A stretch of DNA of 64,000 bases from Phycisphaeraceae bacterium. Lineage in GTDB: Bacteria; Planctomycetota; Phycisphaerae; Phycisphaerales; Phycisphaeraceae. Within the stretch, counting starts at the first letter, position 1. Every line of letters begins with the position of its first letter. Shown here piece by piece: positions 16,601-25,600 of the stretch. The stretch covers positions 3,648,001-3,712,000 of the forward strand of contig OY771506.1 in assembly GCA_963674705.1 (NCBI GenBank), read 5' to 3'. The position numbers were made by a program.

Positions 16601-19600
16601 ACCTTGAACAGCCGGACCTTCGGATACTTCACCGTCTCGGTTAACGCCTCTTCCGCGTTATGCGCCTTGTCCAGCCGAAAGTCCATGTTCGACTGGCCCG
16701 TGCACAGCCAGACCTCGCCGACCAGGACATCTTTGAATGTGACCGACGATGCCTTGCCTTCGACCGTCAACTCGAACGGCCCACCGGCGTCCATCGCCTT
16801 CAGGTCGACGCGCCATTTGCCCGCATCGTTGGCCATGGCCTTGGCGGATTTGCCGTCCAGGCTGACCGTCACCGACTCGCCCGGATCGGCCCAGCCCCAG
16901 ACCGGGATCGCGATATCGCGTTGAAGCACCATGTGATCCCCGAAGATCGCGGGCATCCGGACTTCAGCAAGCGTGGTGGTGCAGATAAGTGTCCAAACCG
17001 CGAGCGCGGCCACGATAGAGAGGGTCTGTCGTTTCATACCCAAGACTATAACCTGACACTTCCAACAACCCCATGTCCATTTTGGACATGGTCTTTGCAA
17101 ACATGGATGTACATCCGGTTTGGCATCCCAAAACCGTAGGCCCGGCCCCCGGACATGGGTGCATCCCCTGTTATCTGCGTCCGGGCAGGGCCGGACCTAC
17201 AAGCGTCCTCAAGGCGGTTTGTTAGCGGCACACTTGGCTGGCGATGAATGGCGGTGTGTGATTCAATGGACATCCGTGGTGGGTTGCGCTTCGCTTGACC
17301 GCACCCTATACCGGAGTGGGGACCTATGCTACTTGCTGTCTCCCCCAACCGTTTTCCCGAGCATAGTAACTTCATCTAACAGATAGGTACCCGGTGGCAG
17401 TTTCTTGGCTACATCAAACTCATCATCACTCACCTCGGTATTGATCTGAAGAGCGAAGCTCCCATCTTCTTGTTCCAACACGTCGAATTGATGTTGGTGC
17501 GTAGCGGCCTCATCTTTCACGCCGAAGTAAGAACGGATCCCCTTTACGGCAAACCATTGGCCGCCGATCTCCGCGACCTCGCTAACCTCATATATCACAC
17601 GGGGGTACCCTTTCCCAAGCCAAAGCTCCTGCCGCAAAGGAACAAAACCCCTTTCCGGGTCCAGCCAAAGACTCACAAGTTTCCGATCCTTGAGTTCTTC
17701 ATTGGGATATAGGTCAACCACGTAACACTGCCGGCCGCCAATGGGCTCCATCGCTTCTCGCAGTCGAGCACCTGGCGCACTAAGCCAGGTGGAAGCGCTG
17801 GCATCTAGCAAGCTGTAAATATTTTTAGTATCTCCTCCATGCGGAAGATTAAGAAGATTGAAGTTGAAGAACTCACTGTTATACCGATTGGCGGCTTGCG
17901 GCCTACTCTTCAAAACAATTGCTTGTGAATTATGCACGGTATAATCAACCGAGCGATTCCCATCAAACCCGACTATCCGATGGAATTTCAGGTTGTCGAT
18001 ATCCTGGCGCCATCCATAGTTCATATCTCTGACTATTTTATCGCCCTTAACTATAGTTGTTTCGCGTTGGTGTACGAGCACTTCACCTTCAGGCACAACG
18101 GTTGCATTGTACGTGTACGTAACCGTAAGATTCTCTATCATTGAGCGATTGGCATCAACAATTGCATGTATGTCTGTCAACGAAAGATCGGCTCTAGGAT
18201 CTACTGGCCAAGCCGGCTCTGCATAAAAAAGGTTTGCTGTTAAAGCAATCATGCACGCTATTAGGCAGCTATTCGCTGTTATATTCAACCGGCTCAGCTT
18301 CATAATATTACCTGTTCAGTAATGAATGCTAGAGAATGTATTATCTGCCGCATGTAAGTCATATTAATGGCTATGGATTTAATTGTTTTTAAGCATTGGG
18401 TGCCCGTGTTGGGTAAGAGTGGTTCAGACTTGGCCCGCCTTGTAATTTATAGCAGCTAATACCAGCGGTATATACCTTGTCAATTCCGCCCAGCCAACTA
18501 TAGCATGAGGATATAATAATTATGGGGCACCCGTGATTTGTAATCCTCCCATCCTTATCACATCTAAAAGTAGAGGGTTTCATGCTCCGTGGGGATTAGG
18601 GGTGGCGAGATGCCGGGTGCCCGTCTTTGACCCGCAGGGCAAAGGCGGTTGACACAGAGCAGAACGCCCGGCCAGCAAGCAACATGGTTTGTCTTTTCGT
18701 AGGGTGGCGTTAAGCGAAGCGCAACCCACCGCAGTCAAGTCGTGGCAGACGGATACAGATTCTCCTCGATGATACGGGGCGTGATCAACCGCGTCTTTCA
18801 TCATTCGTGCTTGGTCGTTCATTCGGCATTCACGCTTGCCTCGCTCGGCGCGGGTCTCCTGACCCTGCCGAAACACCCGACCGAAGGTCTCCCAATTCGG
18901 CATTCACGAATGCTCTATTCCGTGCATTCACAGGTATCCGGCTCATATCCCAGCTAGATCCGGAGGCTTCCGCGGAGAGGGAGGCAGTGAAGACGGCTGT
19001 GCCAGGCTCGGCGCAGGGGCGTCTTCTTGGGTGTTCCGGGGGGGCTGGGGATATCACCCATAATTGCATAATATTGAGTCATTTAGACGATTATCAGCAG
19101 GTATGGCAGTGGTTTGCGATCCGGCGCATTTTGTATTTGCGACGCTTTGCTTGACCGTTTGCGACGGCCGTAAATAACGTGCTTGCAGGTGTTTGAGCGG
19201 CCTGTTCCTGTTAAGATAGTCACCCAAAGATGAGTACCCCATGACTCAGCAGTCCAACCAATCAGTACAGGAGCAGCCGCAGGTCCAAGGGGGCTCGGCC
19301 CTGACGCGATTGGGTGAATTGCTCGGACCTCATAAGTACATGCTCGGCCTCGCGGTCCTGATGCTCATCGGGCTGACCGCGGTCAACATCATCATCCCCC
19401 AACTCATCGCGATCGTCTTCGACGAGGTCTTCGAGACCGGCAACTGGATGCTGCTGTTCACCGTGCTCGCCACCATGCTCGGTCTCTACCTCCTGCGCAA
19501 CCTGCTCTACTTCGGCGGCAAGACCATCTCCGTGAGCATCGGTGAGAACCTGTGCTTCGGTTTGCGTAAGCAACTGTTCGAGCGGCTCCAGCACATGAGC

Positions 19601-22600: not shown

Positions 22601-25600
22601 CGCCGCGTCCAGACGCACACACGCATCTCCAACAACACGCCCTTCATCATCGGCGGGCTGGTCAGCAAAGATACGATCAATACCGAAGAGAAAGTCCCGC
22701 TGCTCGGCGACATCCCGATCGTCGGCAACCTCTTCAAGAGCAGCACCAACGACAGGCTCAAACGCGAAGTCATCATCGTCATCACGCCTTACGTCCTGCC
22801 CAAGAACCAGGTCGTCGGCCGCAACACTCCCGAAGACGAAGACGCCTTCGACAGCTTCGATAACGAGCTGTTCCGCGATGCCTACCGCATCCGCGCTGAA
22901 GATGTCTTCGACCTGCGCTTCCTCTTCGAAAACCTGCAGGTCCACAAGATGCTGCGCATGGCCGACCAGATCCTCAACCGCCGGCCCGACTGGGCTTACA
23001 AGTATCCCTTCTCCCAGTTCGCGGATAACCGCATCCCCGGCGAGCGCATCCTTGTCTACCGACAGATCTATGAAGTCATCAAACGCCGAGGCATCGATCA
23101 GAAAACCAACCCCAGCCGGTTGATCTACTTCAAGGATGCGCCCGAGCAGCCCGCAGGTTTCGAGGTCAAGTTCCTCGAGCAATCCCTCGCCAAGATGCTC
23201 GGTGTATCAAAGCCCGCGATACCGATCGGCGATGATTGGCTCTTCGGCAACCTCAAGGATCAGGCCGTCGCCATCACCTTTACCGAGCAACCCTTCGACG
23301 GCGCTATTGACGCGCCCACGCAACCCGTGCCCGATGTCAGCCTTGTTGAATGCCACGACCGCGACGAGTGGGGGGCCTTGCTCTGGGAACTCAACCAACC
23401 CAACAGCCAGGGCCAGCGCCGATTCACTATCCTCCTCAAGGATGGCCGAGACATCGCACGCCTTCGTCGTGCCGTCGTCGTCAAGCAGACCGTCCAGCTC
23501 AACGCCACGCATCAATCGCTGCGTCTGCGCAACTTCACGCAGGGTCGCCTGCTGCTGGTGCCGACAATTAAAGACGATCAGGTATTTTTGATTGACGAAG
23601 ACGTCGCCCAGTACTTCTTCTACACCGAGCACTACTACCCCGCCCTGCAGAGCGAACTGCAACGCGACATGGAAGCACTGCATAATGCCCTGCAAGACCC
23701 GGAATACAGCAGCTACCTGGACGATCCGGATATGGTCAACAAACCCATCCCCTGGCGTCCGACCGGCAGGTAAATCGCGGCAAGCATGTTTAGAATAAAA
23801 ACTATCCTTGTCCGATGAGTGCTGTTTTACAGGATAATTCTGTCTACTCATGGGTTGATTAAACCCGCAATCATCCTATATTACCCGCGTGTACACCATC
23901 CGATTGCAGGGGTAGGGCGGACCAACTCCATGATCGATGCGTGAGAGATCTGACATCCGCTAATCAACTATCGCGAACACTTGAAAGGAATCCCAATGTT
24001 TCACGTCACACGTTTAGGATTGCTCGCGGCTGCCTGCGTTGCAGTCCCCGTACTTTCCCAATCGTCCGCTTCTGCGCAGCACGCCAACTTCGTGCTCTTC
24101 GGCGATCCGAATCCCGCCGCCGCGAATGTCCCCGATTCGCAGAAGCACGTCCACCCCATCACCACCCCGTATTACAACGAAGACTCCTTCGTCACCTCCG
24201 ACGTCCGTGCCTGGTTTGTCTACCACGACTTCCCCAAGTCCAGCGTCATCAACGGCGGTAACGCAAAGGTCTACGCCGCTCAGGTCCGCCTCGCCCTGAC
24301 CGATCAACTCCAGTTCGTCGCCTACAAAGACGGCTACATCGATTGGGACTCCGGCCTCATCAAGGACGACGGCTGGAACGACATCGCCGCCGGCATCAAG
24401 TGGAACTTCATCCAGGACTGGGAAAACCAGTTCCACATGGCTGCCGGTATCGGCTACGAAATCCCCACCGGCGGCTCCGATGTCCTCCAGGACGACGACG
24501 AGTGGCGCTTCTGGGTCTCCGCCAACAAGGGCTTTGAAGAGCTGCACCTCGGCGGCACACTCAACTACATCGTCTCCGATCAACCCAACCAACGCCTCGG
24601 TAACTCCGATCAACTCATCTGGAACGTCCACCTCGACTACTACGTCAGTGAGTTCTTCAGCCCGGTCGTCGAACTCAACGGCTTCCACGTCCTCGACGAC
24701 GGCGGCGTCGTGGTCCCGTTCTCCGGACTCGACGTGGTTAACCTCGGCGGTAACGAAAACGAAGACGTCGTCACCCTCGGCCTGGGCACGGAACTGCGGC
24801 CCAACGATCTGATGTCGATCCGCGTTGCTTATGAAACACCGCTGACCGACAACGACGACCTCTACGGCTACCGCTGGACGTTCTCCCTCGTTTGGCCGTT
24901 CTGATGATTCAAAAACAAACATCCCGGGCGGGAACGGTTTGTTGTTAATAACTCACCAGCCGCCCCGCGCACCCACGCGGGGCGGCTGTCTTAGGTGACA
25001 GTGGTCTGATAAAAAGATAGACTCCCCATTGCTTTATTGCCGACTTATGTCTCAGGTCGGGCGGACATGCTCAGGGCGGATGGACCAAGTTCAGGAGAGA
25101 TGCGCCGGTGACAGCCTCACAGACATTGGATGCAACCCCGGATTCACCGGGCAAGCTCGAAAAATTTACCTATGACGACAAGATCGTGAGGGCATTCCTC
25201 CTTGCGACCATTGTCTGGGCCCTGGTCGCGTTCCTCGTCGGCATCATCGCCGCGATCGAACTGGCCTTCCCCGAAGCCAGCATGGGCATCCCGTACATCA
25301 CGTTCGGACGCCTCCGACCGCTGCACACCAACGCCGCCATATTCGCCTTCGCCGGCAACACCATCTTCGCGGGTATCTACTACTCCACCCAGCGCCTCTG
25401 TAAAGCGCGGATGGCCAGCGACCTGCTCAGTTGGCTTCACTTCTGGGGCTGGCAACTCATCATCGTCTCCGCTGCGCTCACGCTGCCGCTGGGTATCACC
25501 CAGAGCAAGGAATACGCCGAGCTCGAATGGCCCATCGACATCGCCATCGCTGTCGTCTGGCTCGTTTTCTTCGGCGGCAACTTCTTCTGGACGCTCGCCA

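Follow-up and report, generated by a model that had tools for sequence, protein, structure and literature searches.

An ABC exporter half fused through a predicted export signal to a secretin: likely partners in an undescribed trans-envelope route

How might a single reading frame supply a component to each of two membranes, and would the two products then work together? This question is raised by a gene in the window analysed here, a stretch of 64,000 nucleotides from a Phycisphaeraceae bacterium (contig OY771506.1, positions 3,648,001 to 3,712,000), where the survey's finding had described one 1510-aa frame joining an ABC exporter half to a secretin. That description was borne out: the frame on the forward strand is uninterrupted, with no internal stops, and its Pfam domains all score above cut-off (ABC_membrane at residues 36-303, ABC_tran at 371-520 and Secretin at 1013-1186; Table 1). 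One contig from a public run, which may be the source sample, covers the whole gene with 0 differences, and another from a different study covers 18970-25200 with 395 substitutions. As contigs span the gene and long fused frames occur in 44 genomes of the order, an assembly artefact is ruled out. A scan for promoters and terminators gave nothing specific.

Table 1. Features of the fused gene and the gene that follows it (positions in the window; residues of the 1510-aa product)
Feature	Position	Strand	Evidence
Fused ORF: ABC exporter half, internal signal, secretin	19241..23773	+	Frame, Pfam, relatives
Type IV ABC transmembrane domain, residues ~1-335	19241..20245	+	Pfam PF00664 36-303, hydropathy
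Nucleotide-binding domain (NBD), ~351-575	20291..20965	+	Pfam ABC_tran, motifs
Altered ABC signature LSRGQ, 492-496	20714..20728	+	Ortholog alignment
Internal signal-peptide-like segment, 598-634	21032..21142	+	Hydropathy and motif scan; cleavage inferred
Pro/Ala/Lys/Glu-rich linker, 635-690	21143..21310	+	Sequence, alignment
Periplasmic N-terminal domain, 691-810, predicted BamC/KA1/helix-grip-like	21311..21670	+	Structure model
Single N3-type domain with long insertion, 815-940	21683..22060	+	Fold match to EscC 3gr5
Secretin core, 941-1190	22061..22810	+	Pfam PF00263, PDB profiles, Foldseek
Conserved C-terminal domain, 1196-1510	22826..23770	+	Model; no Pfam family
Downstream exported protein, MetA/phenol-degradation-type barrel look-alike	23997..24904	+	Atlas 0.99 (lead)

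The N-terminal part has the make-up of a type IV ABC exporter half: a six-helix membrane domain with short periplasmic loops and no peptidase domain, followed by an NBD with Walker A (388-395), Q-loop (Q436), Walker B (D516-E517) and H-loop (H548). The closest solved bacterial halves in the PDB are TM_0288 and Sav1866, of the type IV exporters TM287/288 and Sav1866 (E = 4e-136 and 1e-133). It had been called MsbA-like, a label we do not retain: MsbA gives the best score, but with TIGR02203 the half reaches 344 bits where the cut-off is 602, this genome has three other exporters with higher scores (417-438), and the signature is LSRGQ, not LSGGQ; MsbA identity is therefore rejected. The half belongs to a dedicated clade whose signature is altered to LSRG[EQ], S-R-G being invariant in 77/77 aligned orthologs.

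A signature altered in every ortholog could also mean that the half is no pump but a nucleotide-sensing regulator of secretin opening or turnover, with the cNMP-binding partners described below doing the same elsewhere. Such a role would fit the cNMP-binding domains of two alternative partners, the LSHGQ signature of 2-Mb genomes, where the residues around Walker B also differ, and the sister halves of L229, L230 and L303, which have lost the catalytic Walker B glutamate, so that not every member of the clade transports by hydrolysing ATP. However, the main clade keeps Walker A, the Q-loop, the Walker B glutamate (77/77) and the H-loop (74/77), its membrane domain is strongly conserved, and the very short periplasmic loops leave little to signal with; we consider a regulator unlikely. 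Taken as an exporter, the half would probably homodimerise, with two weakened ATP sites. No partner with a degenerate Walker B and a consensus signature lies adjacent in the clustered loci or turned up in the small genomes searched (4/4). The one degenerate-Walker-B half in this genome belongs to its own pair, and in four 2-Mb genomes the other exporter halves number just two, each of which carries consensus motifs.

The C-terminal part is a member of the secretin superfamily, with a PF00263 score of 156.8 bits (cut-off 27.5) and a core preceded by N3. Both PDB profiles (GspD/ExeD, E = 2e-44) and Foldseek match it to secretins, the core being closest to GspD; against pIV (7ofh) the core gives Z 13.0 with an rmsd of 5.9 over 211 aligned residues. 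It is not a GspD: the T2SS model TIGR02517 gives 187.9 bits against a cut-off of 351.35, and the structure model shows two domains in 691-940, not N0-N1-N2-N3. The first (pLDDT ~90) is best matched by BamC/KA1-type folds (BamC 2laf: VIA Z 8.0, rmsd 3.6, 97 aligned), and the second matches EscC 3gr5 (VIA Z 9.3, rmsd 1.9, 67 aligned). The C-terminal domain of 315 aa, present in one copy in the genome and modelled with pLDDT 91.3 and pTM 0.88, marks the family. Compared alone with solved folds, it reached Z >=5 with none of 48,161 chains (best Z 4.4), and Foldseek gave no match at E 0.001 beside an Atlas lead of 0.78, a result that says neither new fold nor its absence. With this conserved domain and its two periplasmic N-domains, the secretin stands as a separate family.

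Between the halves, a signal peptide with an AxA site at about residues 613-635 had been proposed. The segment itself stands, with a basic n-region (R598-R606), a hydrophobic core (A611-L626) and a polar c-region ending in I632-Y633-A634, but its site is I-x-A and not a strict A-x-A. Mean core hydropathy is 2.05 over 13 residues and 1.66 over 19, against 2.52 for TM1, and G/P/S helix breakers lie at -6 to -4, positions for which the scan had not selected. By that scan the n-, h- and c-regions and the small residues at -3/-1 are those of a signal peptidase I substrate, and the genome has a signal peptidase I gene. The earlier tally of 81 long forms among the best 120 homologs of the secretin part, all with the segment and an AxA-like site, changes on recounting: 89 of the 120 carry the NBD, and a hydrophobic stretch plus a signal peptidase I or lipobox motif is found in 84/89, compared with 10% of shuffled linkers. 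Signal calls come from hydropathy and motif scanning, and because TM3 of the same proteins is also followed by A-x-A in 68/87, the motif scan alone is unspecific. A hydrophobic segment precedes the secretin in 44/44 fused loci, a count from which L147 (a duplicate) and L044 (frameshifted) were omitted.

The secretin does not arise from an internal start. No ATG, GTG or TTG occurs in frame from the end of the NBD up to the hydrophobic core in this gene, and an ATG with a Shine-Dalgarno-like motif precedes the segment in 5/44 fused compared with 31/40 split-adjacent loci; fused forms therefore do not depend on one. Split secretins have an N-terminal signal and their own start, confirming that unfused forms begin with an ordinary signal peptide. 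A lipobox occurs in 8/44 fused and 30/40 split loci, the class of signal changing in place. The survey's finding had noted neither these lipobox variants nor the altered ABC signature nor the 315-aa domain. Altogether, these features suggest that the internal signal is likely cleaved, with signal peptidase I predicted to cut after A634. Were the segment instead an uncleaved anchor, the 56-residue linker would tie secretin subunits to exporter halves in a covalent trans-envelope cage with several dimers per pore. Retention of the fusion in 44/63 genomes, the 3/89 fused linkers in which the scan finds no cleavage motif, and a Pro/Ala-rich linker that could perhaps span the periplasm speak for such a cage. 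It is nevertheless improbable given the short, moderately hydrophobic core with its polar c-region, the lipobox variants, repeated splitting and order reversal, and the linker, which is unconserved and of the same kind in unfused secretins.

We then looked at how closely the two halves are associated. In 251 Phycisphaerales genomes the secretin is present in 63, the ABC ortholog in 59 and both in 58; the single ABC-only genome is 81% complete and its ABC gene is a fragment. A fused frame of at least 1400 codons occurs in 44 of the 63 secretin-bearing genomes of the order, and source names confirm the fusion, as claimed, in cultured Poriferisphaera (P0038, P0046, L059). Some relatives do have the secretin unfused, as the survey's finding had noted, yet the split genes remain adjacent in either order (ABC downstream of secretin in G023, G038, L144, L154, L180 and L290). 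Secretins without an ABC ortholog were seen in G031, G068, G084 and G244 and in five more genomes whose best ABC match is at most 32%. Tree distances for 40 split ABC-secretin pairs, in which kin are not independent, correlate at 0.98, and the pair is retained in 2-Mb genomes. A secretin tree of 123 rows (FastTree, midpoint root, 7 near-duplicate rows dropped, L044 and L083 scored as fused with a frameshift) has at least four switches between the fused and the split state, showing that covalent linkage is dispensable; we infer that fusion came first and splits later. These data support ABC half and secretin being a dedicated pair in Phycisphaerales, and the two quite likely work in a shared pathway. 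The fusion might also stem from loss of a stop codon between operon neighbours with unrelated jobs, tolerated as the signal peptide undoes it; this is very improbable, for the ABC ortholog hardly ever occurs on its own, and the two genes stay neighbours after splitting, order reversal and transfer to Opitutales.

Apart from the ABC half, no neighbour is conserved in 81 loci. The barrel gene and cbb3 oxidase operon reported downstream are indeed there, but they are local to close relatives (7/81 loci) and were rejected as parts of the system. Beside the gene, no adaptor or TolC was found in the clustered loci; a C39 domain is absent, and type I models score far below cut-off. The secretin family itself is often found without the ABC half, next to unrelated inner-membrane transporters, so that the proposal of a two-part route in which the exporter has its own secretin is not supported in that form. 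MscS-cNMP lies directly downstream of the secretin in 10/11 Verrucomicrobiota-titled loci, and another MscS, 22% identical to the former, in 5 Phycisphaerae-type loci. NTT-HEAT-cNMP accompanies it in 24/69 distant loci, in three arrangements (11 of 80 loci were excluded as Phycisphaerales-type or already seen), and an MFS carrier in 6/20 proteobacterial loci. A search of five genomes including this one, run without a positive control, found no NTT-HEAT proteins. Many loci have no transporter neighbour; instead there are secreted proteins (L157, L184, L189, L127, L122) or, in ~19, a small lipoprotein.

The gene had been said to stand apart from pilus and T2SS clusters, and this agrees with our result that no platform, ATPase or pilin gene recurs beside the secretin in 81, 34 and 69 clustered loci. 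The cut secretin could still serve an unlinked T2SS or type IV filament platform, the ABC half being a co-expressed accessory for lipid or peptide export during assembly or for envelope-stress relief. About ten genes of this genome, several of them far from any secretin, give 18 matches to the GspF/PilC domain, compared with five secretins, which also makes the proposal that the route needs no pilus or T2SS platform less secure; the core is closest to GspD; and in L157, L184 and L189 the gene is directly preceded by genes for secreted proteins that share a C-terminal motif. Against this, besides the lack of recurrent platform genes, the secretin's N-domains number two, as opposed to four in GspD, and the first is BamC-like, and the recurring neighbours are solute transporters. 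We judge an unlinked platform rather unlikely.

Since the fusion runs through a predicted cleavable export signal, the halves are likely two partner proteins of an undescribed trans-envelope route. In the scheme that we favour, signal peptidase I would cut a single precursor after residue 634, the N-part would be the ABC exporter half of the inner membrane, which is predicted to homodimerise, and the 876-aa C-part would go out Sec-dependently from the internal signal. The latter would form an outer-membrane ring that lets exporter cargo leave the periplasm, its assembly perhaps helped by the C-terminal domain, which would stand in for an S domain. For this overall reading we see an even chance. 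Contact between the products would not be needed, as periplasmic hand-over of cargo would suffice; a complex prediction with two ABC membrane domains and the secretin N-domains scored 0.01, which weighs neither way on contact. With the 12-15-mer rings of known secretins, synthesis in equal numbers would put 6-8 exporter dimers to each ring, which fits no known stoichiometric machine. A solute of small or medium size, such as a nucleotide, osmolyte, glycan or peptide, would be the most likely cargo, more so than a folded protein, since elsewhere this secretin family pairs with solute channels and carriers. That the secretin is a solute conduit without a pilus platform is plausible, at slightly less than even chances. 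Somewhat more tentatively, the multi-phylum secretin class with the 315-aa C-terminal domain may be a platform-free outer-membrane gate for interchangeable ABC exporters, MscS, NTT-HEAT-cNMP and MFS proteins, its ABC version in Phycisphaerales being a polyprotein split by signal peptidase I or II. The established role of secretins is to gate machines driven by pili or built as needles; pairing with four unrelated kinds of solute transporter would put these pores to a new use and would give a handle on the uncharacterised NTT-HEAT-cNMP and MscS-cNMP proteins. The fusion would also be a natural test of signal peptidases I and II acting on an internal signal behind a cytoplasmic ATPase, one polypeptide supplying two membranes. 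A literature search, covering main texts and few subscription journals, found no paper on this exporter-secretin fusion or on this secretin family.

Among known systems, the T2SS secretins GspD/ExeD/PulD (6i1x, 5wq7, 6hcg) share the core and N3. The present family differs in having two N-domains, the first BamC-like, in place of N0-N3, a C-terminal domain of 315 aa where GspD has its S domain, synthesis as the tail of an ABC exporter and no platform genes nearby. Some members are lipoproteins, as are liposecretins such as the pilotin-free HxcQ. The exporter half resembles TM287/288 and Sav1866, and the TM288 chain likewise keeps the catalytic D-E and H although its signature is altered; here, however, no TM287-type partner is found adjacent or in 2-Mb genomes, S-R-G is invariant and a signal peptide follows at the C-terminal end. 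The idea of a rare protease-processed polyprotein stands as far as a conserved fusion with a likely cleaved signal goes, but internal cleavage has precedents. In the Bradyrhizobium FbcH cytochrome b-c1 precursor, cleavage at an internal site separates a C-terminal exported part. In Staphylococcus LtaS, according to PMC12260438, signal peptidase cuts internally and releases the exported C-terminal part. Both are polytopic membrane proteins giving off an exported part as proposed here, whereas the present protein has a 230-aa cytoplasmic ATPase before the signal, a predicted outer-membrane C-part and lipobox versions. The NTT-HEAT-cNBD proteins, inner-membrane neighbours of the family in distant loci, are the subject of PMC5381601, whose main text does not mention secretins. 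Passage of non-protein cargo has a precedent in the cyanobacterial and Myxococcus slime nozzles, where secretins are needed for export of a polymer, and PMC12475490 cites, in addition, a role of a myxobacterial secretin in tolerance to salt and the passing of small molecules through secretins in the closed state. As presented there, the nozzle proteins are true PilQ or GspD, components of pili or the T2SS are implicated, and there is neither a linked ABC exporter nor a fusion. Finally, type I secretion and tripartite efflux (PMC8277102) likewise combine an ABC exporter with an outer-membrane channel, but they do so through an adaptor and TolC, whereas here the channel is a secretin, the loci hold no adaptor or TolC, and the protein has no C39 domain.

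The fused gene is open over 1510 codons, and Pfam places both ABC exporter domains and a secretin domain in it (see table), as the survey's finding had held. It is single copy in the genome. One contig from a public run, which may be that of the source sample, spans it with zero differences; one from a different study spans it with 395 substitutions. The fusion also occurs in cultured Poriferisphaera, as claimed, the named carriers including Poriferisphaera corsica and strain WC338; the ABC-secretin fusion is real and conserved. At three gene loci (L006, L044 and L083) frameshifts, probably assembly errors, break fused genes; the L044 ABC frame still terminates with signal and linker. 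Variant homologs (P0142, of 2037 aa, P0139, P0163 and P0167) have a very long linker between ABC and signal, or further sequence C-terminal to the conserved domain. Upstream of the window's fused gene lies a REP-like palindromic repeat with 14 blast matches in the genome and copies on many other contigs. The divergent genes, which encode a protein weakly like LolA and a sialate esterase bearing a Ca-adhesin-like repeat, are not conserved next to the ABC-secretin module, and the fused cbb3 oxidase subunits I and II (NF011053, above cut-off) are a known arrangement.

Features and their locations
Feature	Location	Basis or remark
Fused frame	19241-23773 (+)	open reading frame
ABC_membrane	residues 36-303	Pfam
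ABC_tran	residues 371-520	Pfam
Basic residues after ATPase	residues 598-606	sequence/hydropathy
Hydrophobic run	residues 611-626	sequence/hydropathy
Polar stretch	last residues I632-Y633-A634	then Pro/Ala-rich linker
Secretin	residues 1013-1186	Pfam
51-base palindromic repeat	18842-18892	
LolA-like and sialate esterase genes	15496-18303 (-)	
cbb3 subunit I-II fusion	25108-27498	
Frameshifted fused gene	L044:7786-12457	
Sister ABC halves beside distant secretins	L229:4009-5751; L230; L303:3330-5099; L290:2959-4911	degenerate Walker B
Small lipoproteins	L257:7971-8417; L265:5322-5807	
Exported proteins upstream of secretin	L157:7957-9711; L184:7890-9704; L189:3597-5192	
Secretin with extra AMIN domain	L256:4972-8052	

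Among 251 genomes of the order, the secretin C-terminal domain gave 63 clear matches (leaving out one weak match, E 7e-4), 44 of them in frames of at least 1400 codons. The ABC ortholog was found in 59 genomes, 58 of which also carry the secretin; in the sole ABC-only genome (G065, 81% complete) it is a fragment. Five genomes carry the secretin only: in G050 the ABC gene is present but frameshift-split, and G031, G068, G084 and G244 gave no match to the ortholog. In a phylum-wide sample the secretin family was matched in only 6 of 301 genomes. Where the genes are split, ABC lies immediately 5' of the secretin (Opitutales included) or immediately 3' (G023, G038, L144, L154, L180), and across 81 loci neither has another conserved neighbour. 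That the two were joined by chance is very improbable.

Fused forms make up 89 of the 120 best secretin homologs, and in 84 of these an SPase I or lipobox motif comes after a hydrophobic segment, versus 10% of shuffled linkers; the survey had counted 81 fused forms, all with the segment and an AxA-like site. As a control, A-x-A also trails TM3 in 68/87 (TM1 in 0, TM5 in 3), so the motif alone is weak evidence for a signal. Comparative data argue better for one than the motif scan. The segment is present in 44/44 fused loci despite unconserved linker sequence. Just ahead of it, 5/44 fused versus 31/40 split-adjacent loci carry an ATG accompanied by a Shine-Dalgarno-like motif; the window's fused frame has no in-frame start at that place. 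A lipobox replaces the SPase I motif in 8/44 fused and 30/40 split loci. The 123-row secretin tree requires at least four changes between fused and split, whose direction we infer. The topology fits: six helices, a cytoplasmic ATPase, then an N-in signal. Sequence suggests cleavage here, and an uncleaved tether is improbable. Internal cleavage has precedents, FbcH among them. In LtaS, SpsB makes such a cut, according to PMC12260438.

The ABC half had been called MsbA-like; it scores 344 bits against a cut-off of 602, paralogs in the genome score higher, and MsbA was rejected as its identity. Among solved bacterial halves it comes closest to TM_0288 and Sav1866. Orthologs retain Walker A, Q-loop, Walker B glutamate and H-loop with an altered signature, S-R-G in 77/77 aligned (LSHGQ in 2-Mb genomes). 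A sensing role for this half is unlikely. Intact catalytic motifs with an altered signature usually mark one heterodimer chain. No partner lies adjacent, and four small genomes have only two other exporter halves, both with consensus motifs, so the simplest reading is a homodimer. The clade is an old one: sister halves adjoin distant secretins (L229, L230, L290, L303); their motifs are further altered, three lacking the catalytic glutamate and that at L229 also the H-loop histidine.

In a predicted model of the secretin part (pLDDT 82.7), the first domain resembles BamC/KA1 (Z 8.0, rmsd 3.6, 97 aligned), and one N3 domain (Z 9.3, rmsd 1.9, 67 aligned) precedes the secretin core. The 315-aa C-terminal domain, which has no Pfam family, is predicted to fold confidently alone (pLDDT 91.3). 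It matches 293 cluster representatives, extending the family, by record titles, to Betaproteobacteria, Verrucomicrobiota, Gemmatimonadota, Latescibacterota, Acidobacteriota and Marinimicrobia; one member carries an AMIN domain.

Secretins without this ABC often adjoin other inner-membrane transporters. Counting loci whose kin are not independent, these are MscS-cNMP (10/11 Verrucomicrobiota-titled loci, clustered, 3 scanned), unrelated MscS (five loci), MFS with a binding protein (6/20 proteobacterial loci) and NTT-HEAT-cNMP (24/69 distant loci; upstream, downstream or divergent). A single rule of transporter-secretin pairing is countered by small lipoproteins downstream (about 19 of 69 distant loci), secreted proteins upstream in some proteobacterial loci, and several loci with no telling neighbour. 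The lipoproteins, immediately downstream of the secretin in about 19 Gemmatimonadota/Latescibacterota-titled and immediately upstream in 18 Marinimicrobia-titled loci, are pilotin candidates; those at L257 and L265 are related (E 7e-7). Exported 530-600-aa proteins immediately upstream at L157, L184 and L189, of no Pfam family, have in common a C-terminal motif of 60-70 aa (53-56% identity); the motif may be a sorting signal and the proteins may be cargo. A PhoX phosphatase gene lies downstream, convergent, at the ABC-less L074, L222 and L223; upstream at L085, L101, L103 and L112 are a gene of SdiA-regulated/phytase-like type and one for a TAXI-type binding protein that carries an RCK domain.

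The secretin might instead serve an unlinked platform, the genome holding about ten GspF/PilC genes against five secretins; this is rather unlikely. The reading we favour, with about even chances for the whole route, is this: the precursor would insert in the membrane, the internal signal would export the C-part, signal peptidase I would cut after A634, the ABC halves would dimerise, and the secretin would form an outer-membrane ring, possibly gated, releasing the exporter's solute cargo out of the periplasm.

Within the papers searched (main texts), we found nothing on the fusion or the secretin family, and in that literature the fusion is undescribed. PMC5381601 presents NTT-HEAT-cNBD proteins without function and, in its main text, without mention of secretins; PMC12475490 describes secretins exporting non-protein slime. 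By membership tests the system falls outside type I secretion, MsbA and GspD, the last being the best-scoring match to the C half in the survey. In its presumed mode of action the arrangement resembles a tripartite exporter, one in which the channel is replaced and the adaptor is missing.
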